From: a virus
Strand: one strand, 5' to 3'
Virus record (IMG/VR): IMGVR_UViG_3300032246_002821
Coordinates: 118,954-182,953 of that record
DNA length: 64,000 nucleotides
Part shown: positions 6,360 through 32,009 of the stretch, in pieces
Numbering within the stretch: position 1 is the stretch's first letter
Layout of the letters: each line of letters opens with the position of its first letter
Position numbers and translations under genes: made by a program
Notes under the pieces: generated by a model
What the model was told of the DNA's origin: nothing
The model's database searches: none
What the model saw: the letters and a program-made list of their open reading frames with translations, nothing else

Positions 6360-6372
6360 AGGAATAATTATG

Positions 6373-6400
6373 TTGACAATGGTGGCTTGTATGCTAGTAT
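6373..6400 (+). promoter_or_regulatory. sigma70-type promoter
   Basis: TTGACA-N16-TAGTAT, TGC before -10. Confidence 0.65.
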
Positions 6401-6430
6401 GAGTCATAAACACAACAAGGAGCGTGTGAA

Positions 6431-6604
6431 ATGAATGCATTGGGTTGGGTGGTATTTGTGTTAGTGCTTGCGCTTTTGGGCCCAGTTATCACTATCTGGA
6501 GTCTCAACACACTGTTTCCAGTGTTGAATATTCCTTATACCCTGGAAACCTGGGCGGCAGCTGGTGTGCTTTTCGGCAGCGCCATCTGGAAAACCAAAGA
6601 TTGA
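6431..6604 (+). CDS. small membrane protein (57 aa, MNALGWVVFV...GPVITIWSLNTLFP), missing from the ORF track
   Basis: translated by hand; SD aagga, hydrophobic, follows the promoter. Confidence 0.7.
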   Translation: MNALGWVVFVLVLALLGPVITIWSLNTLFPVLNIPYTLETWAAAGVLFGSAIWKTKD

Positions 6605-6609
6605 GGAAG

Positions 6610-7331: not shown

Positions 7332-7522
7332 AAGAACGTGTTAAAATATTCATCGATCGTTGGTATGGTACGGGTTGTCCTCCCTACACTTGGCCCTTGA
7401 CAATCACGCCCATTGTGCTAAGTTTGTTTCATATAAACGGCATAGAAAACGCCATAATCTTTTTCAGTGGCTTGTGTTTTGGTTTGCTGTGTGCTACTAT
7501 GATTTACTTGCACAATCACTGA
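7328..7522 (+). CDS. small membrane protein
   Basis: 64 aa, two hydrophobic segments. Confidence 0.55.
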   Translation: MKERVKIFIDRWYGTGCPPYTWPLTITPIVLSLFHINGIENAIIFFSGLCFGLLCATMIYLHNH

Positions 7523-10497: not shown

Positions 10498-11097
10498 ATG
10501 CCCAATTGGTGCAATAACAATGCCATCATCCGCCACGCTGATCCAGAGATGATCTCAAAAGTGGTCAAAGGCTACGCACACGGCAAGTTGTTCAGTGAGT
10601 TCTTTCCCTGCCCTGAAGAATTGTCAGCCCCTGTAGAGATAGGTGAAAACTATAACGATCGAGTGGCGGCTCAGGAAGCAGCCAATCGCGAAAAATTCGG
10701 TTATAGCGACTGGTATCACTGGTGCACAGACAACTGGGGAACCAAGTGGGACGCTGGGAACGAAAATGACGAGGACCTAGACTGCTTAGATCCCAACAAG
10801 GTACAGCTCAGCTTCGACACAGCCTGGCAGCCTCCCGTGGCATTCTATGAGAAGATGACGGATATAGGTTTCCAGATAGATGCTTTTTATCTGGAAGAAG
10901 GGGTAGGCTTCGTGGGCAAATACACAAGCACTGACGGTGATGAGAATTATAACTTCGATGGTTCCGAAGATCTGGAAGACATTCCAGATGACATCCGGGA
11001 GTTCTGGGATCTGGACACCATCTGTGAATGGCGTGATGCTGAAGAAGACGACGATGAAGAGCCTGAAGAAGACCAAGAGGAAGATGGATCCAGCTAA
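10498..11097 (+). CDS. DUF1281/YubB ferredoxin-like domain protein with acidic tail
   Basis: MPNWCNN...DWYHWCTDNWGTKWD...FDTAWQPP...FYLEEG. Confidence 0.8.
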   Translation: MPNWCNNNAIIRHADPEMISKVVKGYAHGKLFSEFFPCPEELSAPVEIGENYNDRVAAQEAANREKFGYSDWYHWCTDNWGTKWDAGNENDEDLDCLDPNKVQLSFDTAWQPPVAFYEKMTDIGFQIDAFYLEEGVGFVGKYTSTDGDENYNFDGSEDLEDIPDDIREFWDLDTICEWRDAEEDDDEEPEEDQEEDGSS

Positions 11098-11104
11098 TTA
11101 ACAT

Positions 11105-11257
11105 ATGCGATGTGATCCTGCTTTTCGTATGATCTGGATAGAAGGTTATACAGCTAAAAAGAACAATTTACCAGCTGCGGTTTGTCCTTATGACCAGGCC
11201 CAGCTGGTTTTTCATTGGCTCCAGGGGTACACAGATGCGGAATTGGATCAGCAATGA
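11105..11257 (+). CDS. Rmf/CrpP-fold small protein (ribosome modulation factor-like), missing from the ORF track
   Basis: hand translation MRCDPAFRMIWIEGYTAKKNNLPAAVCPYDQAQLVFHWLQGYTDAELDQQ contains GY.A...CPY......WL.G(Y/W). Confidence 0.65.
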   Translation: MRCDPAFRMIWIEGYTAKKNNLPAAVCPYDQAQLVFHWLQGYTDAELDQQ

Positions 11258-19158: not shown

Positions 19159-20067
19159 ATGATGCAACCCGTATTTCCAGATTTTAAATTCATGATAAAT
19201 GCTTTAAATCGCGATCTGGAAAAGAGTATATTTGGTAAGATACCTTTCGTCATACCCAAGAGTTATACGGTGGTGCTGGGTCGCATAGGTGATCTGGAGA
19301 TCCGGCTGGCACAGACTCGTAAAGAGATCAAGCAAGCACAGAAACTCAGGTATCGTATATTCTTCAAAGAGCAAGGTGCCATCGCCACATTAGAGGCGAT
19401 GATGAAACAGAGAGACATAGATCCATATGATGCATATTGTGATCATCTACTGGTGGTGGATACGAAGTATCCTAGAAAGAAGATGCCAGGAGTTAAAGAA
19501 CTTTATAAAGAACAAGTGGTAGGCACCTATCGCCTACTCAGACAAGATGTAGCAGAAAAGTATTCGGGTTTCTACAGCCAAACAGAGTTTGATGTAGCGG
19601 CCTTGATCCAGCGACACCCAGGCAAGCGTTTCTTAGAGCTAGGGCGTAGCTGCGTTGATAGCGCATACCGCGACAAACGCACCATAGAACTATTGTGGCG
19701 TGGCATCTGGTGGTATGTGAACGAGTGTAAGATAGATGCCTTGTTCGGCTGTGCCAGTTTCGAAGGCACAGATGTTAAAAAATTGTCTGAACAACTGAGC
19801 TTGCTACAAGATGCTGCCAGTGCTGCACCTGAATGGCAAACCCAGGCACATCGTTCGGATTATGACAACACAGATAGGGTGACAGATTATGATGCTAAAA
19901 AAGTGTTGCATCAGTTGCCCACACTGATAAAAGGTTATATGCGCTGTGGTGCCAGGTTCGGCACAGGCGCTGTGATAGATAGAGAATTCAATACCACCGA
20001 TGTGCTAGTGGTATTGCCTGTCACAGACATCACACCCAGATATCGTGAACACTTTACCATGCAGTGA
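19159..20067 (+). CDS. olsB: ornithine-acyl-ACP N-acyltransferase (GNAT), ornithine lipid synthesis
   Basis: LGRIGDLEIRLA...RDIDPYDAYCDHLLV...VGTYRLL...FYSQTEF...LELGRSCV...RTIELLW...FGCASF...LPTLIKGYMRCGA, the Rhizobiales OlsB pattern. Confidence 0.82.
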   Translation: MMQPVFPDFKFMINALNRDLEKSIFGKIPFVIPKSYTVVLGRIGDLEIRLAQTRKEIKQAQKLRYRIFFKEQGAIATLEAMMKQRDIDPYDAYCDHLLVVDTKYPRKKMPGVKELYKEQVVGTYRLLRQDVAEKYSGFYSQTEFDVAALIQRHPGKRFLELGRSCVDSAYRDKRTIELLWRGIWWYVNECKIDALFGCASFEGTDVKKLSEQLSLLQDAASAAPEWQTQAHRSDYDNTDRVTDYDAKKVLHQLPTLIKGYMRCGARFGTGAVIDREFNTTDVLVVLPVTDITPRYREHFTMQ

Positions 20068-20090
20068 AAAAATATTTTTAATATCAGTGA

Positions 20091-20108
20091 TTGTAACACG
20101 ATTGTAAT
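20091..20108 (+). promoter_or_regulatory. second Pho-box-like direct repeat
   Basis: TTGTAAC-acga-TTGTAAT (11-bp period), near-copy of the 19100 element; TAAATA at 20120-20125. Confidence 0.65.
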
Positions 20109-20173
20109 ATTGCCGGTCTTAAATATTTGTGGTAGATGGTCTACCGCTTTTATTTTTTCCCAGGGGAAACAAA

Positions 20174-20488
20174 ATGAATCTTGATATGGTTGAACACGGT
20201 CTAGTGGTTAGTGTTAGTTTTGCGGAAGCAGACGATTTCGACAATGGTCCTGTTCTGGCAGCTATCAATGCTCTTGTAGAAGCATTGAAAGATTGTGCAG
20301 AAGTTAGTGTAAGCATCAGCAGCGAATATGTTGATGATAATGAAGAAGACTTAGTCCAGGAAGATGCAGATGATGAATTCGCTGATGATCAAGAAGATGA
20401 TGAAGCAGATGAATCAGAACATGATGCAGAAGATGCATCAGAAGATACAGATGCTGATGCAGAACACAAAGAAGATGACTTGCACTAA
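20174..20488 (+). CDS. very acidic small protein
   Basis: 104 aa from ATG 20174, about 40 D/E, 2 K, 0 R; SD agggga. Confidence 0.7.
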   Translation: MNLDMVEHGLVVSVSFAEADDFDNGPVLAAINALVEALKDCAEVSVSISSEYVDDNEEDLVQEDADDEFADDQEDDEADESEHDAEDASEDTDADAEHKEDDLH

Positions 20489-20546
20489 CAGCGTGATTTG
20501 AACTCGACAAATCCAGAGCAGTATGTTATACTGCTCTTTTTTTTGG

Positions 20547-20552
20547 TAAATA
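20547..20552 (+). promoter_or_regulatory. late promoter core TAAATA
   Basis: 6 nt upstream of the plcP ATG. Confidence 0.55.
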
Positions 20553-20558
20553 GCAGAC

Positions 20559-21332
20559 ATGAAACAATACAAAAGCATATTCATCAGCGACGTACACCTG
20601 GGCACCAAAGGCAGCAAAGCCGAACTATTACTGGCATTCCTACGAGAAGTAGAATGTGAAAACCTGTTCCTGGTGGGAGACATCCTGGACGGTTGGAGGA
20701 TGAAGAAAAACTGGTACTGGAACGAACACCACAGCACAGTGGTGCAGAAGATACTCAGGATGGCTCGTAAAGGCACAAAAGTTTATTATATCCCTGGCAA
20801 TCACGACGATTTTATGCGTGAATTCTTGGAATATAATTTCGGTAGCATAGAGCTGCACAACGAAATGATTTATACAGGCGTCAATGGCAATCAATACATT
20901 GTGATACATGGTGACAAGTTCGATATCGTGACACTGAATGCCAAATGGCTAGCACACATCGGGGACTGGGCCTATACAGCTCTATTGGATCTCAACACAA
21001 CATTGCATTGGGTAATGCACAAGCTAAAGTTGCCCTATTGGAGCCTGAGCAAATGGGCCAAGAACCAGGTCAAGCAGGCTGTCAGCTTTGTAGGAGATTA
21101 TGAAACCAGTCTGGTGAATTATGCCAGGTTGAAAAAAGCAGACGGCATCATATGTGGACACATCCACAGTGCCCGGATAGGAATGATTAACGATATAGAA
21201 TACATGAACTCAGGCGACTGGGTGGAGAGTTGCACGGCCCTGGTTGAACATACCGATGGTCTCTGGGAGATAATTACTTGGACAACAGACACTGATGTGG
21301 TTATTGATACTACTGGCAGTCAAGATAGGTGA
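20559..21332 (+). CDS. plcP: PlcP-type metallophosphoesterase phospholipase C (usually annotated UDP-2,3-diacylglucosamine hydrolase-like)
   Basis: IFISDVHLG, LVGDILDGW, VVQKILRMARKG, PGNHD, HGDKFD, WSLSKWAK..VK.AV, CGHIH, NSGDWVESCTAL. Confidence 0.82.
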   Translation: MKQYKSIFISDVHLGTKGSKAELLLAFLREVECENLFLVGDILDGWRMKKNWYWNEHHSTVVQKILRMARKGTKVYYIPGNHDDFMREFLEYNFGSIELHNEMIYTGVNGNQYIVIHGDKFDIVTLNAKWLAHIGDWAYTALLDLNTTLHWVMHKLKLPYWSLSKWAKNQVKQAVSFVGDYETSLVNYARLKKADGIICGHIHSARIGMINDIEYMNSGDWVESCTALVEHTDGLWEIITWTTDTDVVIDTTGSQDR

Positions 21333-21528
21333 TCCTGCAGATGTTCCTGGTCGTGTGACCCTGGAATTTCCCACAGAGCAAGCCTGTCAGGCCAGTTTGA
21401 AAACAATGACCTATTGGTTGAAATTCGATAGTTTCAAAGTCACAGGAGCCTGCAAAAGAAATGAAAATAACACTGGTAACAGACACCTGGAAACCCAGCA
21501 TAAATGGGGTAGTGACAACACTAACTAA
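21295..21528 (+). CDS. small phage-type hypothetical protein between plcP and agt
   Basis: hydrophobic N-terminus, FPTEQACQ motif; overlaps both neighbours. Confidence 0.5.
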   Translation: MWLLILLAVKIGDPADVPGRVTLEFPTEQACQASLKTMTYWLKFDSFKVTGACKRNENNTGNRHLETQHKWGSDNTN

Positions 21529-22471
21529 CACCGTACAGCATCTCATACAGCAGGGTCATGATGTACAGATCATAGAGCCTGGCCAGTTTCACACTGTAGG
21601 TGCACCTGGATATGCGGAAGTCAGACTCAGCTGGAACCTGTGGCAAGTGGGCCGGATGATCGAACAGTTCGATCCTGATGCCATACACATCGCCACAGAA
21701 GGTCCACTGGGATTAGCAGCCAGATGGTACTGCAAGGTGGAAAAGCGTAGCATACCACACAACACCAGCTATCACACCAAGTTTCCTGAATATCTCTATC
21801 AGCATTATCACATACCGGAAAGCTGGACCTATCGCTGTATGCGGGTGTTCCACAAGTTCAGCACCCGTGTGCTGGTGACCAATCAGGATATGATGACCGA
21901 TCTCGGTGAACGTGGTTTTGAAAATCTCAGCATCTGGAATCGTGGTGTGGATCGTGAGCTATATCATCCTGATCGTCGTCGTAGGCTCAGCTATCGCAGG
22001 CCCATAATACTGTGTGTTAGCCGTGTCAGTAAAGAAAAAGGACTGGACGACTTCTGCAGTCTACGTGTCAAAGGCACCAAAGTACTTGTGGGAGATGGAC
22101 CTATACTTCCGGAATTGAAAAGACGTTATCCAGATGTGGTATTCGCAGGTGCCAAGACAGGTACTGCACTGGCTGAATACTATGCTGCCGCGGATGTATT
22201 CGTGTTTCCCAGCCAGACCGATACTTTCGGTGTGGTGATGTTGGAAAGTATAGCGTCAGGTACACCTGTGGCTGCTTACCCTGTGACAGGTCCCCGAGAC
22301 GTGGTGATAAATGACGTCAACGGTTACATGGATTCAGACTTGACTGTTGCTGTGGAACGTGCTATGTTATGTGATAGAGTGGCGGTCAGGAACAGCAGCG
22401 AGCAATACGACTGGGCAGCTTGCACCGAAACTTTTGTAAAAAATCTGAAAATAATCGAAAAAAATAGTTGA
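21461..22471 (+). CDS. agt: GT4 glycosyltransferase, Agt-like monoglycosyl/glucuronosyl-diacylglycerol synthase
   Basis: LVTDTWKPSINGVV, PGYAEVRLS, IHIATEGPLG, YHTKFPEY, FVFPSQTDTFGVVMLES. Confidence 0.75.
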   Translation: MKITLVTDTWKPSINGVVTTLTNTVQHLIQQGHDVQIIEPGQFHTVGAPGYAEVRLSWNLWQVGRMIEQFDPDAIHIATEGPLGLAARWYCKVEKRSIPHNTSYHTKFPEYLYQHYHIPESWTYRCMRVFHKFSTRVLVTNQDMMTDLGERGFENLSIWNRGVDRELYHPDRRRRLSYRRPIILCVSRVSKEKGLDDFCSLRVKGTKVLVGDGPILPELKRRYPDVVFAGAKTGTALAEYYAAADVFVFPSQTDTFGVVMLESIASGTPVAAYPVTGPRDVVINDVNGYMDSDLTVAVERAMLCDRVAVRNSSEQYDWAACTETFVKNLKIIEKNS

Positions 22472-22497
22472 CATCGTCTGACGATAGTGTATAAATA
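22468..22497 (+). promoter_or_regulatory. promoter of the tRNA leader (sigma70 site overlapping T4-like late TATAAATA)
   Basis: TTGACA-N16-TATAAA; TATAAATA at 22490-22497. Confidence 0.75.
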
Positions 22498-22526
22498 GAT
22501 AGTAAGTTAAACAAACGGAAAAGAAT

Positions 22527-22604
22527 ATGTTTATGTCGCAAGAACCAAAATCACCCATTTGTAACTGGTATGGTCGTCATACCTGTGGGGTCCTTGTGGC
22601 GTGA
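22527..22604 (+). CDS. putative attenuator leader peptide MFMSQEPKSPICNWYGRHTCGVLVA
   Basis: 25 codons using 19 different amino acids; the last codons form the antiterminator arm. Confidence 0.65.
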   Translation: MFMSQEPKSPICNWYGRHTCGVLVA

Positions 22605-22631
22605 TGTGATCACACATCAATAGTTTACAAG

Positions 22632-22659
22632 AACCCCGGTGTCAAACCCGGGGTTTTTT
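22632..22659 (+). terminator. intrinsic terminator (attenuator), alternative to the antiterminator 22587-22597/22627-22637
   Basis: AACCCCGG-loop-CCGGGGTT followed by a T tract. Confidence 0.85.
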
Positions 22660-22660
22660 G

Positions 22661-22800
22661 TTGGCAGGCAGTTGCTCCCTAAACATAAGAGCAACCTCCG
22701 ACTGGTACTTGAGCCGAATGGCTGAATAGGTGGTTTCCAGCGGAGCAGGAGAGATTGTCTCTCCACAGATACATTTGTGTGTATCTGTAAAGTGACAATC
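22661..22800 (+). ncRNA. candidate structured RNA with a pseudoknot
   Basis: four helices plus 7-bp loop-to-tail pairing GATTGTC/GACAATC. Confidence 0.55.
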
Positions 22801-22802
22801 AA

Positions 22803-22879
22803 CCGCCCTTAGATAACGCTGGCTATATCACTACCCTTTCAAGGTAGAGTAACGGGATCGACACCCGTAGGGCGGACCA
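22803..22879 (+). tRNA. tRNA-Glu(UUC)
   Basis: cloverleaf, CTACC-CTTTCAA-GGTAG, CCA; T-loop ATCGACA. Confidence 0.85.
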
Positions 22880-22885
22880 GTTAAA

Positions 22886-22960
22886 GGACCAGTAGTTCAG
22901 AGGGAGAACAACCGACTCTTAATCGGTGTGTCGCAGGTTCGATCCCTGCCTGGTCTGCCA
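22886..22960 (+). tRNA. tRNA-Lys(CUU)
   Basis: ACCGA-CTCTTAA-TCGGT, TTCGA, CCA. Confidence 0.92.
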
Positions 22961-22963
22961 ATA

Positions 22964-22992
22964 TTGACTTTATCAGTGACATTGTATAAAAT
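22964..22992 (+). promoter_or_regulatory. sigma70-type promoter
   Basis: TTGACT-N17-TAAAAT. Confidence 0.6.
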
Positions 22993-23011
22993 CAAAGAAA
23001 AGGACAATGTT

Positions 23012-23719
23012 ATGGATATATTTTGGAGTGTGGCAGAATGTGCCAGCATACCACATATAAGTTATGAAGAACCCAGGCCGGTTTTGGCAGAAATATCAAA
23101 AACCATTCCTGAGTTCCAAAATCCAAAAAACCGTATAACCAGCTGCCCTGCTTTCCGTGACAGTTGTAAAAACACCTATAGTTTACACGTACCCATAGAG
23201 TATGAATTGACTTATGCTAATAACGACATCAGCACCACAATGTGGGACAGAGAATTTTTTACAGATGTGGTCACAGTCAGAGATTTCAAATATCCCAACT
23301 GGACCAGTATGCAGTTCAAATACATATTTGTTGCAGAGGGAGATCTGGAAATAGAAGTGCTGCCTTGTTTCCTGACTAGCAACAGTTTCACAGACAATGC
23401 AGACATCATACCTGGCCGGATGAACATTGGCAAATGGTTCAGACCTGTGGAATGTGCGTTCGTAGTTAAGTCAGGCGACAGGACCATAACATTCAACCAG
23501 GGCGATGCATACAGTTTTGTCAGGTTTTTGACTGATGAAAAGATCCGTTTACGTAGGTTTTTCATGACACCCGAATTGAATCACATCACCAGCAGCAACA
23601 TAAGCGCCAGAGATTACAAACGCAGATTGAATCCGCTGAGTTATTTTTACAATCTGTACGAACGCAGCCATATGCACAGCAAAGTGCTAAAAGAAGTAAA
23701 AAATAACCTGATGGAATGA
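23012..23719 (+). CDS. conserved phage hypothetical protein (CPAF...IGKWFRP...FNQGD family)
   Basis: start moved to ATG 23012 to avoid tRNA-Lys. Confidence 0.75.
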   Translation: MDIFWSVAECASIPHISYEEPRPVLAEISKTIPEFQNPKNRITSCPAFRDSCKNTYSLHVPIEYELTYANNDISTTMWDREFFTDVVTVRDFKYPNWTSMQFKYIFVAEGDLEIEVLPCFLTSNSFTDNADIIPGRMNIGKWFRPVECAFVVKSGDRTITFNQGDAYSFVRFLTDEKIRLRRFFMTPELNHITSSNISARDYKRRLNPLSYFYNLYERSHMHSKVLKEVKNNLME

Positions 23720-23861
23720 GTTGTGGGTGGAGGTAACCCTCAGTGGAGCAGGCCACTCAGAAACCATCCTGCTGAGTAGGATCCATCACAGGATCTGGGC
23801 AAGGGCGATCATAAGCCAGTGTGGCAGCGGTAGAGGGGGCTGGTCACACACTAAATATCCG

Positions 23862-24170
23862 ATGCGTATAGCCGAGATATTGACAGAATTGGATTTCATG
23901 GGCAGTCCTTGCACCAAAGATTGCAGTGGACACCAGGCAGGTTATATGTGGAGCCTGAACAAGGGCGGCAAGGTTGCCAACAGCTGGAGCAACAGTTTCA
24001 ACAACGGTGCTGCCATAGGTCACAAACAGGCCACACAGCGTCCACAGGGCGGAGGTAAACGTGCTGGTTATACCAGCCAGACTCCAGGTGCTATGAGACG
24101 CAGGAATCAGAGATTGGCTGCACAACAGGCTGCTCAGGCAGCGGCAGCACAACAACCACCACAAGTTTAA
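23862..24170 (+). CDS. late hypothetical protein MRIAEILTE...
   Basis: TAAATA at 23852; CTKDCSGHQAGY motif. Confidence 0.7.
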   Translation: MRIAEILTELDFMGSPCTKDCSGHQAGYMWSLNKGGKVANSWSNSFNNGAAIGHKQATQRPQGGGKRAGYTSQTPGAMRRRNQRLAAQQAAQAAAAQQPPQV

Positions 24171-24180
24171 AACTTTATAT

Positions 24181-24255
24181 GTAGGGATAGTTTAATAGGC
24201 AAAATCTTGGTCTCCAAAACCAAAGTTCCCAGATCGTTGCTGGGTCCCTATGCCA
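24181..24255 (+). tRNA. tRNA-Trp(CCA), non-canonical T-loop
   Basis: TTGGT-CTCCAAA-ACCAA; T-arm CCCAG-ATCGTTG-CTGGG; CCA. Confidence 0.75.
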
Positions 24256-24261
24256 TTACAC

Positions 24262-24418
24262 TGTTACAAACCCTCCAAGTGATAGCGATCTTGTCATAGG
24301 TTTTGTAACATTTTCACTTGGGCAGGCCTGCTAAACTATGATCTGCCTCCGCCACACACGAAACGCAGGATGGGCTGTGTGTGCCAGGCTGTGGAGTGCC
24401 TGAACAAATACTCCACAC
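24262..24418 (+). ncRNA. candidate structured RNA between tRNA-Trp and tRNA-Cys
   Basis: 9-bp, 8-bp, 7-bp and 8-bp complementary helices; no credible ORF. Confidence 0.5.
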
Positions 24419-24424
24419 TAATTT

Positions 24425-24498
24425 GGTCTGGTGTCGGAGTGGTTACGGAGCGGTCTGCAAAACCGCCTACGAGAGTTCGATTCTCTCCCAGACCTCCA
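24425..24498 (+). tRNA. tRNA-Cys(GCA)
   Basis: GCGGT-CTGCAAA-ACCGC, U73, CCA. Confidence 0.92.
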
Positions 24499-24502
24499 AT
24501 CT

Positions 24503-24578
24503 GCTTAGATAGCTCAGCTGGTAGAACACTGCGCTGAAGACGCAGGTGTCAGCGGTTCGATCCCGTTTCTAAGCACCA
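24503..24578 (+). tRNA. tRNA-Phe(GAA)
   Basis: CTGCG-CTGAAGA-CGCAG, CCA. Confidence 0.92.
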
Positions 24579-24579
24579 T

Positions 24580-24656
24580 ACACCCTTAGCTCAGCTGGAT
24601 AGAGCATCTGACTACGAATCAGAAGGCCGGGAGTTCGAATCTCTCAGGGTGTGCCA
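24580..24656 (+). tRNA. tRNA-Arg(ACG)
   Basis: TCTGA-CTACGAA-TCAGA, CCA. Confidence 0.93.
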
Positions 24657-24666
24657 AAAATAAGTA

Positions 24667-24694
24667 TTGACATATATGTTAGATGTAGTAATAT
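24667..24694 (+). promoter_or_regulatory. sigma70-type promoter
   Basis: TTGACA-N16-TAATAT. Confidence 0.65.
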
Positions 24695-24716
24695 GACATA
24701 TACAGGAGATTAGGCG

Positions 24717-25142
24717 ATGATGGAATGTTTGATCTTGGGCGACAGCATCGGACGCGGCATCAGCAGTGTCATGCGCGATTGTGTTCAAATCACAGAAATC
24801 GGCATCAATACTGATAACTGGTACAAGAAATATCACGATCGTCCCATATTCGATATGCAACAATATCGGTATGTGGTGGTCAGTCTGGGATCCAACGACA
24901 TCGCAGATAGCAGTGCCACCATGCGCCGCATACGCAAGAAATTCAGTGCTGCCAAAGTCATATGGGTATTGCCCAGCGATCAGGTCAAAGCGCCACAGCG
25001 AGCCATAGTGGAAAATGTAGCTGCAGAATTTGGCGATTGGGTTTTAAGTATCACTGACCGGGTGGGGGCGGACAAGGTGCACCCACCCACAGTGGAAGCA
25101 TATGAAAAGATAGCAAAAAACATAAAGGACAGTGTAAAATGA
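24717..25142 (+). CDS. SGNH/GDSL hydrolase-like protein (paralogue of 1097..1516)
   Basis: GDSIG, SLGSND, DKVHP. Confidence 0.72.
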   Translation: MMECLILGDSIGRGISSVMRDCVQITEIGINTDNWYKKYHDRPIFDMQQYRYVVVSLGSNDIADSSATMRRIRKKFSAAKVIWVLPSDQVKAPQRAIVENVAAEFGDWVLSITDRVGADKVHPPTVEAYEKIAKNIKDSVK

Positions 25143-25474
25143 TCAAGCGTATTGTTATGGCTACCTGTTTGATTGCATCACCAGCTGTTGCGGAAACCTG
25201 GGCCACTGCTGATTGCACGTTGGCCAACGGTGGCAAGATCCGCTACGCGGTACACGACAGCAAAGGTTTTATCTCTTATGATGGAGAAGGACCCTATGAG
25301 ATGTTTACCAAACGCGATGGTAATATGGGCATTGTCACACACATCGGCAACCGTGGTAACACAGTGTTGGCAGTGGATCTGGATAGCGGCCGAGGGTATA
25401 TTATCACCAAGTTTGATAATGGTCACACCAGAGAAATGAATGTCAGTTGCCGTTTGGGCGTCACAGAAAAATAA
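25139..25474 (+). CDS. secreted/periplasmic hypothetical protein
   Basis: signal-peptide-like MIKRIVMATCLIASPAVA. Confidence 0.7.
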   Translation: MIKRIVMATCLIASPAVAETWATADCTLANGGKIRYAVHDSKGFISYDGEGPYEMFTKRDGNMGIVTHIGNRGNTVLAVDLDSGRGYIITKFDNGHTREMNVSCRLGVTEK

Positions 25475-25478
25475 CCGG

Positions 25479-25506
25479 TTGACAACTATCTTAACTGTGT
25501 TATATT
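25479..25506 (+). promoter_or_regulatory. sigma70-type promoter
   Basis: TTGACA-N16-TATATT, TGT before -10. Confidence 0.75.
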
Positions 25507-25521
25507 CATAATATAGAGTTT

Positions 25522-25598
25522 GGTCAAGTAGCTCAGTTGGTTAGAGTGCCGGCCTGTCACGCCGGAGGTCGCGGGTTCGAGCCCCGTCTTGATCGCCA
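25522..25598 (+). tRNA. tRNA-Asp(GUC)
   Basis: CCGGC-CTGTCAC-GCCGG, CCA. Confidence 0.93.
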
Positions 25599-25619
25599 AA
25601 TTAGAGTCGCTGGATTACT

Positions 25620-25830
25620 ATAGAGACGGTCACCGCGGTCTGTCTCTTGTGCGTACCAGTGCTGGAGGCCCGTCAAACCAGCATAAACAAACGTGGCAGG
25701 AATTGGCAAGGGGAACTACTCGGCAGTCGCATCGCAAGATGTCGCAACGGAGCCCCTTGCCGTCGAGGCCAGAGGGATTGTAGGTGGACCTGTATTATAT
25801 GCCCTTGGGGTGTTGTGACTGGGCTTGTAA
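25620..25830 (+). ncRNA. candidate multi-stem structured RNA between tRNA-Asp and tRNA-Lys
   Basis: 8-bp, 6-bp and 9-bp helices, GCAA tetraloop. Confidence 0.5.
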
Positions 25831-25846
25831 CCTTCATAAATTTTAA

Positions 25847-25922
25847 GAACCCATAGCTCAGTAGGTAGAGCACCTGACTTTTAATCAGGGTGTCGCCGGT
25901 TCGACCCCGGCTGGGTTCACCA
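25847..25922 (+). tRNA. tRNA-Lys(UUU)
   Basis: CCTGA-CTTTTAA-TCAGG, CCA. Confidence 0.93.
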
Positions 25923-25923
25923 A

Positions 25924-26154
25924 TTATGCAAACTTGCTGGCTATGCTGATAGCAGTTATCAACGCAGCTTTAACGGCCATATCGTCAGCTTCTTCGTTCA
26001 AACGATCGGTTGCGATAAGGTCTTCCATAAGTTCAGCTGCTTCTTCAGGTGATAATGCGCCTGAGTTGCGTTGCTTCTGGATGTCTAGGGCCATCTTAGC
26101 GCGAGTTTCTGCCCAACCTGATCCGCAGTGTGCTAGTTCTTGTAGTGATGCCAT
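25924..26154 (-). CDS. hypothetical protein
   Basis: 76 aa, coupled (TAATG) to the upstream lipoprotein. Confidence 0.7.
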   Translation of the reverse strand: MASLQELAHCGSGWAETRAKMALDIQKQRNSGALSPEEAAELMEDLIATDRLNEEADDMAVKAALITAISIASKFA

Positions 26155-26546
26155 TAGAATCTCCCTAAAACGGCTTTGCTTGATAGTTCAGCTTGTTTAA
26201 CTAATATGTCTTTCTTAATCCGGCAATAGGCAGCACTGGGTTCTTTTTCTTTGCTACGGTCTGCCCATTCGTTCACTGTCTTTTGCATAGGAGCGATCAG
26301 TTCCAGCACATCGTGTTGCAGATAGCCTTTGCTCTCGCTGTACAGTTCAAACCATTGAAGTTCTTTTTGTATTTGTACAGCTTGAAAGTTTTGTGTATCT
26401 TCACAGTTGATGTTAACAATCAGTTGTCTGGCTGTTATGATGCTCCTGGATTGGTTGTCATCCCAGAAGCTGGGCACGAATGTTGCTACCGTTGCATTGC
26501 AACCGGCTAATACTAAGAAACTCAATACCGCGATGATTTTTTGCAT
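26154..26546 (-). CDS. putative lipoprotein
   Basis: lipobox LAGC; TAAATA at 26551-26556 (minus strand). Confidence 0.7.
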   Translation of the reverse strand: MQKIIAVLSFLVLAGCNATVATFVPSFWDDNQSRSIITARQLIVNINCEDTQNFQAVQIQKELQWFELYSESKGYLQHDVLELIAPMQKTVNEWADRSKEKEPSAAYCRIKKDILVKQAELSSKAVLGRF

Positions 26547-26577
26547 ACAGTATTTAGTTTTTGATAACTACCATAAC

Positions 26578-26653
26578 GCCCAATTAGCTCAGATGGTAGA
26601 GCAGTTGATTAGTAATCATCAGGTCGGCGGTTCGAATCCGTCATTGGGCACCA
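26578..26653 (+). tRNA. tRNA-Thr(AGU)
   Basis: GCCCAAT acceptor, anticodon loop TTAGTAA, TTCGAAT, CCA; one U-U mismatch in the anticodon stem. Confidence 0.85.
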
Positions 26654-26668
26654 TTATTAAGGTTCGCT

Positions 26669-27787
26669 ATGTTCGTAAAATGCATCAGGATGGAAGCCTA
26701 TTTCGGAGCCAGTTATAACTTCGAAAGATTGAAGGAAAATATACAAAAAGATCTGGCACAGACAAGAGCAGCTGGTACTGAACCCTATTTCTTCCTCAGT
26801 TATTGTTGGGAGAATTTTCCTGAATTCTATTGGTACGACAATGTCACTCAAAATATCCGTAGCATATTGAAAGACCTGGGCATAACACATTATAAATTCG
26901 TGTTTCCCACCAGTTTTTTACACAATAGATATCCAGTGTACACTGGCCAGATAGACCAGTCGGATATGATCTTCCTGGAGTTTTTTGCTCTATACAGTTT
27001 CCATAAGATATTCGGAGATCAAAAGAAATATCGCAGCTGGAATTATTCGGGAGAGGTGTTGGCCAATCCTGCCTGGAACAGTGACAGCGATCGCGCCCTG
27101 TTGCTATTGGGCAAGATAGCCAAATTGAACCGTATGCCATTGCTGGCCGAATTCTACAGAGCCAATAACCTGTCGCGCATAGACTGGAGTTTGTATCTGA
27201 ACGATAACATCAAAGCCGATGCCAGGCATCTGGCCCCAGAATTTACAGATGAGGAATATGAAATATTCATATCCCAGATGACCAAGAGACTGGATCCCAT
27301 AGACGTGCAGATGCAGGAACGCAGCAGCCATTACTGGGGTTTTCCTTATGATGTAAACTTATACAAAAACACTTGCCTGAGTGTCATAAGCGAAACCAAC
27401 TTCATGTATAACCAGACAGTGTGGGTTACAGAAAAAACCTATCGTGCCATAGCCAATAGGCATCCTTTCGTCATGGCTGCGCCTCCTGGTAGTTTGAAAT
27501 ACATCAAGACCCTGGGTTTCAAGACTTTCGAAGAATATATGCAGATAACAGATTATGATGATATAGAATATGACAAGCAAAGATTGGGCAGTATAATGAC
27601 CAATACCATGTATTTTCTTGATACTAAACACACAAATCTAGAAGAGATAAATGCAGATGTGGAGCATAACTACCAGAACCTTATAGATTTCGTCGATAGG
27701 GAAATTTTAAAACTTGACAAAGTGCTGGATTCAGTGCATAATAGACAGGATAAAGAAACAAGTTGGTCCTTATTGGCCCAGATGTAA
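26669..27787 (+). CDS. GT10-like glycosyltransferase-fold protein (paralogue 5)
   Basis: SVISETNF...WVTEKTYRA...GFKTF. Confidence 0.55.
   Translation: MFVKCIRMEAYFGASYNFERLKENIQKDLAQTRAAGTEPYFFLSYCWENFPEFYWYDNVTQNIRSILKDLGITHYKFVFPTSFLHNRYPVYTGQIDQSDMIFLEFFALYSFHKIFGDQKKYRSWNYSGEVLANPAWNSDSDRALLLLGKIAKLNRMPLLAEFYRANNLSRIDWSLYLNDNIKADARHLAPEFTDEEYEIFISQMTKRLDPIDVQMQERSSHYWGFPYDVNLYKNTCLSVISETNFMYNQTVWVTEKTYRAIANRHPFVMAAPPGSLKYIKTLGFKTFEEYMQITDYDDIEYDKQRLGSIMTNTMYFLDTKHTNLEEINADVEHNYQNLIDFVDREILKLDKVLDSVHNRQDKETSWSLLAQM
27714..27742 (+). promoter_or_regulatory. sigma70-type promoter inside the gene end, driving tRNA-Gly
   Basis: TTGACA-N17-CATAAT. Confidence 0.5.
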
Positions 27788-27789
27788 TT

Positions 27790-27864
27790 GCGGTTGTAGC
27801 TCAGTGGTAGAGCGTCACGTTGCCAACGTGAATGTCGTCGGTTCGACCCCGATCAGCCGCTCCA
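27790..27864 (+). tRNA. tRNA-Gly(GCC)
   Basis: TCACG-TTGCCAA-CGTGA, U73, CCA. Confidence 0.92.
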
Positions 27865-27869
27865 ATTTT

Positions 27870-27941
27870 ACTGCTGTCGGTGTTGATGGGAAACACAGAT
27901 GGACAACACTAGGACACCGTTCGAATCGGAGCAGCAGTACC
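27870..27941 (+). pseudogene. tRNA-like element with a collapsed anticodon arm
   Basis: acceptor ACTGCTG/CAGCAGT, D-stem GTGT/ACAC, T-loop TTCGAAT; no proper anticodon stem; ends ACCT. Confidence 0.6.
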
Positions 27942-27947
27942 TGATTA

Positions 27948-28021
27948 GCGGGCTTGGTATAGTGGTATTATGACAGCCTTCCAAGCTGACGAGACGGGTT
28001 CGATTCCCGTAGCCCGCTCCA
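27948..28021 (+). tRNA. tRNA-Gly(UCC)
   Basis: loop CTTCCAA, U73, CCA. Confidence 0.92.
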
Positions 28022-28027
28022 AAATTT

Positions 28028-28101
28028 GCTGTCTTGGTGTAATGGAAGCACACGAGTTTGTGGAACTCGTAGCACAGGATCGATACCTGTAGACAGTGCC
28101 A
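28028..28101 (+). tRNA. tRNA-His(GUG) lacking G-1, with G1-U72 and G73
   Basis: CGAGT-TTGTGGA-ACTCG; T-loop ATCGATA; upstream base is T. Confidence 0.8.
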
Positions 28102-28106
28102 TATAA

Positions 28107-28189
28107 GGGGCGGAAGTATCAAGGTGATACCGTGGACTGTAAATCCACCGCTTATAGCACGCCTGGTTCGATTCCAGGACGCCCCACCA
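28107..28189 (+). tRNA. tRNA-Tyr(GUA)
   Basis: GTGGA-CTGTAAA-TCCAC, long variable region, CCA. Confidence 0.9.
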
Positions 28190-28229
28190 CTACACACTAA
28201 ATAAAAGGTCAATTGAACAAAGGTCATCA

Positions 28230-28874
28230 ATGAAAGGCAAGATAGCCTTATTCCTGCACCAGCCCAAATGCTCGGTACAATCGGGCAATGGAATTATGCA
28301 GGCATTGCATCCAGATTATCAGTTCAAGATCTTCACAAAACATCGAGTGGAAAAAGATTTCTTCGATGATGTGGATATGATCGCTGTGCCAGGAGGACTG
28401 GGAGACAGCGACAGCTATGCCAGTCTGATGCGTGAAAACGCTGGTCGCATACAGGACTTTGTTGCTAAAGGTGGCAGGTACTTGGGTATCTGTATGGGTG
28501 CTTACTGGGCAGGATATCACTATCTAGACATACTAGACGGCGTCCGAGCCTATCAATATATCACACGCCCCAACACAGACACTCGTAGACCACACGCCAA
28601 AGCCATAGACGTGGATTGGCTGGGACAACCAGAGAAGATGTACTTCTATGATGGCCCAGCATTGGTGGGCGATAAAAACAAGTTTACCACCGTCAGCACA
28701 TACGTAAACGGTGACGCCATGGCCATATATCAGGATCGTATAGGACTGATAGGTTGCCATCCTGAGGCAAATCTGCACTGGTACCAGGCATATCCCTATA
28801 TGCTCAAACACTGGCATAAAGGTGCTCATTACAGTTTGTTGAAAGATTTTGTTGACAAACTGATGCTTCAGTAG
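28230..28874 (+). CDS. BPL_N-like class I glutamine-amidotransferase-fold protein
   Basis: AVPGG...GGRYLGICMGAY...CHPE; TAAATA at 28198. Confidence 0.78.
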   Translation: MKGKIALFLHQPKCSVQSGNGIMQALHPDYQFKIFTKHRVEKDFFDDVDMIAVPGGLGDSDSYASLMRENAGRIQDFVAKGGRYLGICMGAYWAGYHYLDILDGVRAYQYITRPNTDTRRPHAKAIDVDWLGQPEKMYFYDGPALVGDKNKFTTVSTYVNGDAMAIYQDRIGLIGCHPEANLHWYQAYPYMLKHWHKGAHYSLLKDFVDKLMLQ

Positions 28875-28880
28875 TATTAT
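28852..28880 (+). promoter_or_regulatory. sigma70-type promoter for tRNA-Met/Pro
   Basis: TTGACA-N17-TATTAT. Confidence 0.6.
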
Positions 28881-28889
28881 AAGGAATAT

Positions 28890-28966
28890 TGCGGGGTAGA
28901 GAAGTGGTCATCTCGTTAGGCTCATAACCTGAAGATCGGAGGTTCGAATCCTCCCCACCGCAACCA
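28890..28966 (+). tRNA. tRNA-Met(CAU), initiator-like
   Basis: TGCGGGG 5' end, loop CTCATAA, CCA; bulged A in the acceptor stem, only two anticodon-stem G-C pairs. Confidence 0.8.
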
Positions 28967-28971
28967 AGTTA

Positions 28972-29049
28972 CTCGGTGTAGCGCAGTCTGGCTAGCGCAT
29001 CTGGTTTGGGACCAGAGGGTCGGGAGTTCGAATCTCTCCACCGAGACCA
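28972..29049 (+). tRNA. tRNA-Pro(UGG)
   Basis: TCTGG-TTTGGGA-CCAGA, C1-G72, CCA. Confidence 0.92.
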
Positions 29050-30218
29050 AATAAAGCAGCATACTCAGGCATCATTTGGGCAAAGTTTTCGCCTCGTAGT
29101 TGGTCCAGTTTGCTGACGGTAGTTATAAAACTATCCTTTTTGCTAGCCCAGTCAGTGGGTTCATTTGCTAAAAATCTCAGTGTGCAATCACGCTGATCGA
29201 TCCAGCTTTGAACGTACTGACTGGGCTTGTGTGCAAGCAGCTTATCACGCACAGCCTGTTTTATATCTGGTGGCAGATAGCATATATTTGCGTCAGCCTT
29301 GTCTGTGACGCGGTTTGTAAATCCAATGATGTAGCCCAGATCGCTGAAAAACTCGAATGCTTCTGGAATATAAAATACATTATGGCTCATTGTACAGTAT
29401 TGCACTTGAACGGACAGATTATCATATTTGGCAAAATCTGTAGTGTAGCGTTGTAGATTCTCCAGCACGGTCGCCCACTGGCTACCAGCCCTGATATAGT
29501 CATTGTGAGCACCTACACCATCTATGCTATATCCCAATGACCCACTTTTGAATTTGCTCATTTTATCGGCTAAGTCAGGTTTGTATATGGTACCATTGGT
29601 GTGCATCTGTACGTCTTGCGTGGGTATACCACTGTCCAAGATCTTATATGTCAATGGATGTAGCAATGGTTCTCCACCATACAAGTCAAAGAATATAATA
29701 CTGTCGTGCCATTCAGCCAGAGTATCTTCTAACTCAGTGTTGTTGATATAGCTGGTTTCATAACTGACAAACTTTTGTAACCAGGTTTTGAACGGCACAG
29801 CTGGTTGTTCTAAATTGTAAGCGTCTTTGTACCATTGAGTGCTGCTATATGGATTACAACTGCGACAGGCACAGTTGCATTTGTTGCCGTGCTTTAATAT
29901 CAAGATCCTGGGTTGATCAGGCAATGACTCTACATCTGCAAGCAGGCGATTGTATTTTTGCCTGACGCTTTGGTTGCCAGCTTTTTCGTTGTTCCAGCAG
30001 TTGGAACAATAAGGGTTGGGAATTCCCTTAGCCAGCGTATTGAGAAATTTACTTCTGCTTTCACTATTCCAGGCCCGTTTCAATGAACCTGTGTCCAATG
30101 TAATAGGTTTACCACTGCTGTCTTTGAGATAAAGGCTGTTGTAATTACATGGAGTCACTCGTCCACTCATATCCAGGTTTAGAGTTATTTCTGCTAATTT
30201 GCACTTGATGGGTTCCAT
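28992..30218 (-). CDS. radical SAM protein with an N-terminal twitch/SPASM-like domain
   Basis: KCNCACRSC (CxxxCxxC), GGEP, TNGT, SIDG; start moved to ATG 30218; C-terminus runs antisense through tRNA-Pro. Confidence 0.85.
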   Translation of the reverse strand: MEPIKCKLAEITLNLDMSGRVTPCNYNSLYLKDSSGKPITLDTGSLKRAWNSESRSKFLNTLAKGIPNPYCSNCWNNEKAGNQSVRQKYNRLLADVESLPDQPRILILKHGNKCNCACRSCNPYSSTQWYKDAYNLEQPAVPFKTWLQKFVSYETSYINNTELEDTLAEWHDSIIFFDLYGGEPLLHPLTYKILDSGIPTQDVQMHTNGTIYKPDLADKMSKFKSGSLGYSIDGVGAHNDYIRAGSQWATVLENLQRYTTDFAKYDNLSVQVQYCTMSHNVFYIPEAFEFFSDLGYIIGFTNRVTDKADANICYLPPDIKQAVRDKLLAHKPSQYVQSWIDQRDCTLRFLANEPTDWASKKDSFITTVSKLDQLRGENFAQMMPEYAALFGLGGEIRTPDPLVPNQMR

Positions 30219-30234
30219 ACTGATATATATTAAT

Positions 30235-31287
30235 ATGACCGTTTTTCCCGATAAAAATCTGTCAGGATTAGTATGTACAGAACCGTTCCGTACGGTCAAT
30301 ATAGATCCCGTGGGCAATGTACAACTCTGTGGATGCAGTGATTGGATGCCACAGATAGCCGGCAACATAAACAATGCCAGCTTGCAAGACATACTCAACA
30401 GCCCAAAAGCTCAGCTAATGCGTGAGAGCATCAGAGATGGCAGTTACAGATATTGTAACGCAGATAAATGTGGTGTTATAAACAACAAGTGGTTGATACC
30501 CCACACAGATGCCCCTGGTCATAATCTCGATCCAGAATGGCGGTTATACAGGAAAGAAAGCAGTAAAAAAATACCTACCAAATATTTTATAGCTGGTGAT
30601 AAGACCTGTAATCTCAGTTGTCCCAGTTGTAGAAACACAGTGATTAAAAATACCATTGGCGACACTGGTAACAATATCAGAGTGATGAATCTGTTAAACC
30701 AGAACGTGTTTGCCGGCAAAAGCCATTTGCCTATTGAAATAATGTTGAGCACTAGCGGAGAGATTTTTGCCAGCAAATTCCTTTTGGAATTTTTACAAAC
30801 TTTCCCTATAAACAATTACCCAAATGTTATTTTTCACTTACAAACCAATGGTTTGTTGTTAAAGAAAAACTGGCATTTACTTGCTAATATACATAAAAAT
30901 ATCAAAAGTATCACGGTGACTACTGATGGTTGCACCGCAGATACATATGAACATCTGCGTCGTGGAGGTAGATTTACAGATATACTGGACAATCTCAAGT
31001 ATATGCAACAATTAAAACAACAGCATAACTTCGTGACACACAATCGTATGGTAGTCCAGCTGGCCAATTACCAGCAGATAACAGATTTTTATCACTGGAG
31101 CAAGCAACTGGGATTCGATACTGTGGAATACAGCAGATTGCAGGATTGGAAAACATATACCGGTCCGGAATTCGCAGAACTCGATGTATTGAACCCGGAA
31201 CATCAAGCATATAATGCTGCTACGGATAGTATCAAGGAACTATTATCAGAGGGTTCTAGTGTGGTACTTTTGGGGTTTAGTATCTAG
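30235..31287 (+). CDS. radical SAM protein with an N-terminal twitch/SPASM-like domain
   Basis: TCNLSCPSC, SGEIF, TNG; N-terminal CTEPF...LCGC...YCNADKC. Confidence 0.85.
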   Translation: MTVFPDKNLSGLVCTEPFRTVNIDPVGNVQLCGCSDWMPQIAGNINNASLQDILNSPKAQLMRESIRDGSYRYCNADKCGVINNKWLIPHTDAPGHNLDPEWRLYRKESSKKIPTKYFIAGDKTCNLSCPSCRNTVIKNTIGDTGNNIRVMNLLNQNVFAGKSHLPIEIMLSTSGEIFASKFLLEFLQTFPINNYPNVIFHLQTNGLLLKKNWHLLANIHKNIKSITVTTDGCTADTYEHLRRGGRFTDILDNLKYMQQLKQQHNFVTHNRMVVQLANYQQITDFYHWSKQLGFDTVEYSRLQDWKTYTGPEFAELDVLNPEHQAYNAATDSIKELLSEGSSVVLLGFSI

Positions 31288-31364
31288 GCACCCGTAGCTC
31301 AGCGGAACAGAGCTTCGCGCTTCGAACGCGACGGTCGGGAGTTCGAATCTCTCCGGGTGTGCCA
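31288..31364 (+). tRNA. tRNA-Arg(UCG)
   Basis: TCGCG-CTTCGAA-CGCGA, CCA. Confidence 0.9.
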
Positions 31365-31374
31365 AAAATAGTTG

Positions 31375-31402
31375 TTGACATATGTTAACAATCATATATA
31401 CT
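31375..31402 (+). promoter_or_regulatory. sigma70-type promoter
   Basis: TTGACA-N16-TATACT. Confidence 0.75.
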
Positions 31403-31419
31403 GATGATATAAAGTTTAT

Positions 31420-31496
31420 TCCGAGTCGGTCACAAGGTGGGACAGCAGACTGTTAATCTGTTCATCAGGTTGGTTCGATTCCAACACTCGGAGCCA
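31420..31496 (+). tRNA. tRNA-Asn(GUU)
   Basis: GCAGA-CTGTTAA-TCTGT, G73, CCA. Confidence 0.9.
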
Positions 31497-31500
31497 AGTT

Positions 31501-31567
31501 TAGATGTGCGAGGAAGGCGATATGTTTGAACAACTGCTCGCCGCAGGTTCGACTCCTGCCGCATCTA
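31501..31567 (+). ncRNA. three-armed tRNA-like RNA (acceptor, T-arm and a single central arm)
   Basis: TAGATGT/GCATCTA, GCGAG/CTCGC, GCAGG-TTCGACT-CCTGC; no CCA. Confidence 0.6.
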
Positions 31568-31578
31568 ATCTAATAAAT

Positions 31579-31655
31579 GCCCCAGTAGTCCAATTGGTAG
31601 AGGCACTGGTTTTAGGTACCAGGTGGTGGGGGTTCGAGTCCCTCCTGGGGCACCA
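31579..31655 (+). tRNA. tRNA-Leu(UAG) with a short variable loop
   Basis: CTGGT-TTTAGGT-ACCAG, 5-nt variable loop, CCA. Confidence 0.85.
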
Positions 31656-31662
31656 CTAACGA

Positions 31663-31738
31663 TGGCGTGTAGCTCAGCTGGAAGAGCATTCGACCGATAA
31701 TCGAAAGGTCACTGGTTCGAGACCAGTCACGCCAACCA
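31663..31738 (+). tRNA. tRNA-Ile(GAU)
   Basis: TTCGA-CCGATAA-TCGAA (C33), CCA. Confidence 0.87.
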
Positions 31739-31744
31739 AGATAT

Positions 31745-31821
31745 GCTAGCAGGGCGGTAGTGGAATCGCGCCCGCCTCATAAGCGGGTCCAAAGCTGGAT
31801 CGAAGCCAGCTGTTAGCACCA
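31745..31821 (+). tRNA. tRNA with CAU anticodon (elongator Met or Ile2)
   Basis: CCCGC-CTCATAA-GCGGG; T-loop ATCGAAG; CCA. Confidence 0.8.
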
Positions 31822-31829
31822 ATAGTAGT

Positions 31830-31903
31830 TGGGATGTCGTCTAAAGGTAGGACAACGGATTTTGATTCCGTTTATCGTGGTTCGAATCCATGCATCCCAG
31901 CCA
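31830..31903 (+). tRNA. tRNA-Gln(UUG)
   Basis: TGGGATG acceptor, ACGGA-TTTTGAT-TCCGT, CCA. Confidence 0.9.
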
Positions 31904-31919
31904 AGCTATATATGATAAA

Positions 31920-32009
31920 GGAGAGGTGGTCGAGTGGTTGATGGCTCTGGTCTTGAAAACCAGCGAGGGTTCAAGCCCTCCGTGGGTTCGAATCCCACCC
32001 TCTCCGCCA
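31920..32009 (+). tRNA. tRNA-Ser(UGA)
   Basis: CTGGT-CTTGAAA-ACCAG, long variable arm, G73, CCA. Confidence 0.93.

Follow-up and report, generated by a model that had tools for sequence, protein, structure and literature searches.

We describe a candidate transcription attenuator in a 64,000-nt stretch of viral DNA (IMG/VR record IMGVR_UViG_3300032246_002821, positions 118,954 to 182,953; referred to here as the window). The window makes up the final 64 kb of a viral metagenome record of 183 kb that is estimated to represent about half of a jumbo phage genome. A tiny open reading frame (ORF), an RNA switch and an intrinsic terminator precede a row of tRNA genes, so that transcription into the tRNA region is probably tuned to the speed at which this leader ORF is read. 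Based on sequence comparison and RNA folding models, we consider it likely that the unit acts as a transcription attenuator of the ribosome-dependent (leader-peptide) type, which sits at the start of the tRNA region and has been conserved within a clade of jumbo phages. We infer that translation speed sets the extent of read-through and that decoding capacity, i.e. the supply of charged tRNAs, is the signal.

According to our proposal, host RNA polymerase would start at a strong promoter and transcribe the small ORF, the last codons of which (strand 2) would be able to pair with the 5' arm of the intrinsic terminator (strand 3). A fast ribosome on the last codons or the stop codon would cover strand 2, the terminator would form and transcription would end 55–60 nt after the stop codon. 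If the ribosome were delayed earlier in the ORF, strands 2 and 3 would pair, no terminator would form and the polymerase would read into a structured RNA, a small gene and the tRNAs. In the subfamily to which the window belongs, a further strand 1 (codons 3–7) would sequester strand 2 if the leader is untranslated, and read-through would be expected only with an early-stalled ribosome.

Architecture and predicted switching of the unit

The promoter of the unit is of the sigma-70 type (TTGACA at 22468–22473, a 16-nt spacer and TATAAA at 22490–22495; plus strand, as for all elements of the unit), matches the consensus at 11 of 12 positions and shares bases with the stop codon of the glycosyltransferase gene located upstream. 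It was missed by our automated promoter scan, the filter of which demands a T as the final base of the second hexamer, and it is conserved in two close homologs, L087 and L002 (96% and 85% nucleotide identity, respectively). The leader ORF (22527–22604) has 25 codons followed by a TGA stop and encodes 19 distinct amino acids, with Asp being absent. The original prediction, made from the letters of the window alone, had named a promoter at about 22468–22497, this ORF with its amino-acid content, the pairing of 22587–22597 with 22627–22637 at 10 of 11 positions as antiterminator, an inner hairpin and a terminator with T tract; all of them were recovered in place.

Strand 2 comprises the last ORF codons plus the first base of the stop codon (22587–22602) and forms the 5' strand of the antiterminator, its partner being either strand 1 or strand 3; in duplex tests it was matched by 2–6 per 1000 or 500 shuffles. 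Strand 3 (22627–22639; folds, shuffle and duplex tests) completes the antiterminator as its 3' strand and at the same time supplies the 5' arm of the terminator. The latter (22632–22659) is predicted to consist of a stem of 22632–22639 with 22648–22655 and a T6 tract (22654–22659), with energies of -14 to -17.4 kcal/mol. Strand 1 (22533–22546), an anti-antiterminator that was added by the present analysis, pairs with 22589–22602 according to minimum-energy folds and a shuffle test, i.e. it engages strand 2 when no ribosome covers strand 1. This pairing completes the classical four-strand layout of 1:2, 2:3 and 3:4 helices. Strands 1 and 3 have the 8-mer CAAGAACC in common. Two additional hairpins are predicted. 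The one inside the ORF (22567–22583; minimum-energy fold) has a 6-bp stem, which is unchanged in L002, and a 5-nt loop, which differs there. The inner hairpin holding the stop codon (22602–22619) forms in both states, again with a conserved stem and a varying loop in L087 and L002.

Minimum-energy folds of the window reproduce the proposed states: all eight terminator pairs are formed without a ribosome as well as with a ribosome at the stop codon, and none of the eight when strand 1 is masked, in which case the 2:3 helix fully replaces the terminator. Among 1000 dinucleotide-shuffled leaders, just 3 reproduced this on/off/on switching. When a ribosome mask was slid along five units, the terminator was off with the mask at the early or middle part of the ORF and on over the last 8–17 codons in all five; in the window, it was fully opened by codons 1–4 only and partly by codons 5, 6, 8 and 9. 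Strand 1 is present in the minimum-energy folds of the window, L087, L002 and L095, and is not evident in units with 33-codon leaders (see below). One change in L002 strengthens the 1:2 helix and another breaks a pair. A search with the Rfam covariance models, including T-box and known attenuator RNAs, gave nothing at 22460–22810 except one chance-level microRNA match.

A family of homologous units in related jumbo phages

Related jumbo phages and metagenomes yielded 13 homologous units, which makes 14 units with DNA if the window is counted. We distinguish a 25-codon form (window, L087 and L002), a 33-codon form (L090, L091, L100, L102, L104 and L105) and a 43/44-codon form (L093, L095, L099, L106 and L107), the leader peptides of which are alignable with each other. 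Distant homologs were reached by two routes, (i) through the tRNA regions of jumbo phages related via the glycosyltransferase, relatives of which were found in 80 viral contigs, with promoters, terminators and tRNAs being listed, and (ii) through profile searches with the small leader peptides. Synteny of the glycosyltransferase with the unit is retained in L002 only. Two exact-pattern scans of viral contigs recovered the contig of L002 alone, a pattern scan of metagenomes identified L087 as its one true homolog beside six chance matches, and a representative-library search added four small-ORF clusters, its long-protein matches being repetitive false positives. A distant blastn search of the region against GenBank phages returned tRNA matches alone, and a downstream ORF of 235 residues had no match in viral contigs.

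All 14 units have a promoter with 10–12 of 12 consensus matches directly upstream of the ORF; their terminators have energies of -14.8 to -17.4 kcal/mol and a T tract 55–60 nt after the stop codon. In each of them, the best partner of the terminator 5' arm is found within the last 10–30 nt of the ORF, and the observed 2:3 pairing energy was reached by 0–23 of 500 shuffled leaders across units. Across the subfamilies, the pairing is preserved in three distinct sequence registers and with differing sequences, so that conservation concerns the complementarity and not the sequence itself. In L100, strands 2, 3 and 4 changed together, such that helices 2:3 and 3:4 are both 100% paired while the peptide carries a Gln-to-Arg exchange. 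Same-strand tRNAs follow every unit for which enough flanking DNA is available, at a distance of 0.15–1.7 kb. L106 differs by its inner terminator stem.

By its substitution pattern, the leader ORF appears to evolve like a translated gene under purifying selection. Between the window and L087 the ORF substitutions are synonymous in three of three cases, and all six single-base codon changes relative to L002 are at third positions, with ratios of nonsynonymous to synonymous substitution rates (dN/dS) of 0.11–0.14 for the window ORF against these two. Codon 4, for example, is TCG, TCA or TCT among the three close relatives. Family-wide, dN/dS is 0.11–0.62, and variable columns are in excess at the third position (9, 11 and 20 at codon positions 1, 2 and 3). 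This coding-like evolution, the pairing in 14 units, the covariation in L100 and the same-strand tRNAs behind the units lend support to the original idea of an attenuator ahead of tRNA genes.

Conservation of the peptide raises the question if the unit is rather an independent micro-protein gene (25–44 residues) with its own promoter and terminator that merely resides beside tRNAs, the complementarity being structural, for example for RNA stability. The amino-acid sequence is indeed conserved across distant relatives (dN/dS about 0.2), promoter and terminator are both strong, a possible second promoter is located just behind the terminator in L095, L099 and L107, and there is precedent for trans activity of leader peptides and of RNAs derived from attenuators (PMC6614838, PMC7298713). 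We nevertheless regard a stand-alone gene as quite unlikely. The three-way covariation saves both alternative helices while the peptide changes, and in L091 (a complete genome of 337 kb) a 1-nt insertion rewrites the last six residues, the nucleotides being kept and the stop codon lying just 4 nt upstream of its usual place. Moreover, it is in every case the 3' end of the ORF, where a terminating ribosome sits, that pairs with the terminator arm, and the location before tRNA arrays is invariant. The leader peptides have no relevant family match, leader and arrest-peptide families included, in Pfam (E up to 10) or PHROGs (E up to 1); a single weak EGF-like match of the window peptide did not reach the cutoff and was taken as chance.

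Radical SAM genes next to the L102 unit (Pfam) and a radical-SAM-like motif seen by eye in the ORF upstream of L091 had suggested a precursor of a ribosomally made, post-translationally modified peptide (RiPP). This candidate was dropped because the upstream neighbours vary by lineage while the terminator and the tRNA array are constant.

Genes behind the terminator and extent of the proposed control

The terminator at 22632–22659 is the only one on the plus strand between 20544 and 29219, the position of the next one. It is followed by a conserved structured RNA of about 140 nt (22661–22802, plus strand; without Rfam family), which would be the first thing transcribed upon read-through. The fold z-score is -5.1 for 22500–22810, leader included. 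In L002 this RNA is about 95% identical, with one 4-bp helix changed on both strands in a compensatory manner; we assigned the RNA to the plus strand because this change includes a G-U pair. L087 has many changes in the central hairpin. Next on the plus strand are a tRNA-Glu(UUC)-like gene (22803–22879; ARAGORN) and tRNA-Lys(CUU) (22886–22960; ARAGORN and Rfam), which is the last gene ahead of the next promoter at 22964. Between the terminator and that promoter we found no convincing promoter, the sole match (22661–22689; 9 of 12 positions) being at chance level and not kept in L002. The 140-nt RNA, the tRNA-Glu-like gene and tRNA-Lys(CUU) are therefore predicted to depend on read-through. No strong promoter was seen between the terminator and the first tRNAs in L090, L100 and L105 either.

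A further element of the 33-codon subfamily is a conserved ORF of about 57 codons, which has a good ribosome-binding site and begins about 20 nt past the terminator (L091 8579–8752; L100 3181–3354; L102 3179–3352; L105 857–1027); no Pfam family was obtained for the copy in L091. Behind the stop codon of this ORF, Met, Cys and Trp tRNAs are found at 7–10 nt in L102 and L105 and at about 90 nt in L100.

Several observations speak against the attenuator interpretation or limit its reach. Near-consensus internal promoters precede most tRNA blocks of the window (25479, 27714, 28852 and 31375 with 11 of 12 matches; 24667 with 10 of 12), so the device cannot gate the whole cluster, as had originally been claimed; what stands of this claim is control of entry into the region, i.e. 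of the structured RNA, the tRNA-Glu-like gene and tRNA-Lys. Three 43/44-codon units have a conserved, weak promoter-like site (TTGACT, 17 nt, TAAAGT) about 28 nt after the terminator (L095 5933–5961; L099, minus strand; L107 3215–3243), which may give basal expression of the downstream genes. The Shine-Dalgarno signal of the window leader is weak (GGA at 22517–22519). In all six 33-codon units (L090 being on the minus strand), the ATG is just 6–10 nt past a TATAAT hexamer, for which reason their mRNAs are probably leaderless and start at or beside the AUG. Conservation of the peptide exceeds what a pure codon-sampling role needs. Minimum-energy folds are a crude model; in them, L091 and L093 adopt the antiterminator already in the ribosome-free state, and L087 retains a short terminator when masked. 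Finally, the covariation stems from one variant sequence (L100) and thus from one event, which is why its shuffle controls are not significant.

Amino-acid diversity of the leader and the possible signal

The finding of 19 amino acids within 25 codons has a probability of 4e-4 under a random-nucleotide model and of 2.6e-4 with independent draws at proteome composition. The same diversity was reached in 8 of 34,091 sliding windows of the long ORFs of the phage, and the leader is the sole case among the 409 ATG ORFs of the window. Taken alone these values are weak evidence, since the leader was picked for being extreme. Amino-acid diversity is in the upper tail in every lineage (independent draws: L002, P = 4e-3; L090, 0.07; L091, 0.056; L093, 0.09; L095, 0.012), and Fisher combination of three lineages without the discovery case gives about 0.004 (hand calculation).

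As a special case of the attenuator, the leader might be a pan-amino-acid test ORF, on which shortage or cleavage of almost any tRNA would stall the ribosome and switch on the phage tRNAs. We take this for a possible, if minority, reading. It draws on the diversity in all lineages and on the 43/44-codon peptides, five of six of which contain all 20 amino acids, with the positions of the single Val and Cys residues differing among members. If alignment columns were shuffled for four divergent 43/44-codon members, a test that ignores phylogeny, diversity decreased (19.75 types observed versus 18.76); the observed value was reached in 40 of 20,000 shuffles, and the three divergent members were all complete in 403 of 20,000. 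For the 33-codon peptides, with 16–19 types, there was no excess (17.78 observed versus 17.94 shuffled). Diversity hence looks actively maintained in the 43/44-codon form and not in the 33-codon form. Other features also argue against a pure sampling of amino acids. The repeated residues Leu, Pro, Asn, Ile and Glu are invariant and, being conserved too, point to peptide-specific constraints, and dN/dS is about 0.2; the diversity excess stems in part from a few conserved rare residues (Trp, Cys and His), and Lys was lost from the L002 leader.

The original prediction had gone as far as a general sensor of almost any host tRNA, and had advised a look for diverse leaders with terminators before the tRNA arrays of relatives. 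Thirteen homologous units with conserved pairing were recovered, and the elevated diversity in every lineage, maintained in the 43/44-codon form, is compatible with a general sensor. Such maintenance is not seen in the 33-codon form, and in the simple masking model the window terminator is fully opened by stalling at the first few codons only; both points weaken the idea.

Alternatively, the leader could be sequence-specific, with conserved codons before strand 2 (Trp, Cys and Glu) matching Cys, Trp and Glu tRNAs behind, or with the peptide acting as a ligand-responsive arrest peptide. Trp occurs in every peptide and occupies one MAFFT column within the 43/44- and the 33-codon forms. Cys is likewise found in every peptide, though at different positions, and the first tRNAs behind the 33-codon units are Met, Cys and Trp. 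Purifying selection acts over the whole peptide. In L091, six of the seven consecutive codons 22–28 match the tRNAs that follow (P = 0.0008), the sole significant unit. In L002, the sole cluster of replaced codons (8–10) gains two Asn, and its first downstream tRNA is Asn instead of the Glu-like and Lys tRNAs. A similar anecdote is provided by L087, where Glu-like, Pro, Lys and Lys tRNAs are located behind a leader reading Glu-Pro-Lys at codons 6–8. Yet in 10 of the 13 units the leader residues show no significant match to the tRNAs behind them, and the spacing between the Trp codon and strand 2 is not conserved, with about 20 nt in two subfamilies and 44 nt in the remaining one. The C-terminal residues are dispensable as judged from the L091 frameshift, and the leader and arrest-peptide families of Pfam gave no match. 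Altogether we regard this alternative as rather doubtful. The related idea that leader codons mirror the phage's own tRNAs was tested and is not generally supported: codons match phage tRNAs no better than those of ordinary phage genes do (21 of 25 in the window versus a baseline of 0.72, P = 0.14).

According to current views, phage tRNA genes help to counter codon mismatch, host shut-off and defences that cleave tRNAs (PMC10264068, PMC11555353, PMC11464382). Papers on phage tRNAs treat their role against tRNA-targeting defences and not their regulation; control of their expression is almost unstudied, and we found no attenuator described for phage tRNA genes in the literature. Only tentatively do we suggest a complete circuit, in which a leader sampling (nearly) all 20 amino acids would let any tRNA depletion, be it by host shut-off, starvation or anticodon nucleases, stall the ribosome and raise transcription of the phage tRNA region. 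Such a homeostatic counter-defence circuit would represent the first case of tRNA genes controlled by a leader peptide. Should read-through follow the speed of translation, the phage would possess a feedback loop supplying tRNAs on demand, and when and why phages express tRNAs would become directly testable with simple reporter constructs.

Relation to known regulatory systems

Classical leader-peptide attenuators are those of the amino-acid operons trp, his, leu, thr, ilv and pheA, and also of pheST. The phage unit resembles them in its promoter-proximal short ORF, in the predicted 1:2, 2:3 and 3:4 strands with mutually exclusive antiterminator and terminator, in the proposed coverage of strand 2 by a ribosome at the stop codon and in a similar distance between stop codon and terminator. 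It differs by an unusually diverse leader without single-codon runs, by the nature of the regulated genes, with tRNAs, a structured RNA or a small ORF of a phage in place of biosynthetic enzymes, and by the position of strand 1 at the very start of the ORF, a strand that the apparently leaderless 33-codon forms may lack. What seems to be conserved at the entrance of the tRNA arrays in this uncultured jumbo-phage clade is a textbook bacterial control device with a leader of unusually varied amino-acid content. The unit matches none of the curated leader families in Pfam, PHROGs and Rfam.

A leader ORF with alternative stem-loops and no single regulatory amino acid is also found in bmrB-bmrCD of Bacillus subtilis, where the speed of leader translation sets read-through, which increases upon general slowing of translation and, at the basal level, with rare codons (PMC4191407). 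That system answers ribosome-targeting antibiotics and controls a drug exporter; it is not from a phage, has no link to tRNA genes and no sequence relation to the unit described here. A precedent for a conserved leader peptide is rnTrpL/peTrpL of Sinorhizobium, in which the terminated attenuator RNA and the leader peptide are themselves functional, with trans functions demonstrated by experiment (PMC6614838, PMC7298713). T-box riboswitches share with the proposed phage device a transcription antitermination that responds to tRNA status; unlike it, they bind uncharged tRNA directly and need no translation, and no T-box match was obtained with Rfam here.

Neighbouring genes and the tRNA arrays

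Directly upstream of the unit (19159–22471) are genes for a GNAT acyltransferase (Pfam Acetyltransf_5), a metallophosphoesterase and the above-mentioned glycosyltransferase. Downstream, ARAGORN predicts 22 tRNA genes, all on the plus strand, at 22803–32009 of the window, and two further tRNAs elsewhere in the record. The initial claim that the 16 amino acids in the upstream part of the leader all have a cognate tRNA in the window, with Ala and Val lacking an intact one, is correct for the window; but one of the two tRNAs elsewhere in the record is a tRNA-Ala(UGC), and the tRNA-Glu at 22803–22879 is a weak match (29.7 bits in Rfam versus a cutoff of 29). The tRNA-Thr(AGU) at 26578–26653 has an A in the wobble position, which is unusual for bacteria and phages.

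The beginning of the array varies among the close relatives. In L002 (around 7385–7410), the body of the tRNA-Glu-like gene is precisely deleted and just the two acceptor-stem halves remain, and in L087 (1098–1256) an extra tRNA-Pro is located between the tRNA-Glu-like gene and tRNA-Lys. Insertions of homing-endonuclease-type genes separate attenuator and tRNA array in L095 (an ORF at 6324–6923, HNH-like as judged by eye) and L106 (genes at 2101–2505 and 2860–3390 with Endonuclease_7 and T5orf172 Pfam matches). At the loci L095 2194–2268, L094 2421–2515 and L106 4527–4620, ARAGORN predicted, in one relative, a tRNA of the amber-suppressor type (anticodon CUA) and, in two others, long genes resembling tRNA-Ile(UAU). 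L091 has a sixth tRNA at 11052–11128 according to Rfam, which was missed by ARAGORN with default settings and at a lower threshold appears Leu(CAG)-like with an odd D arm.

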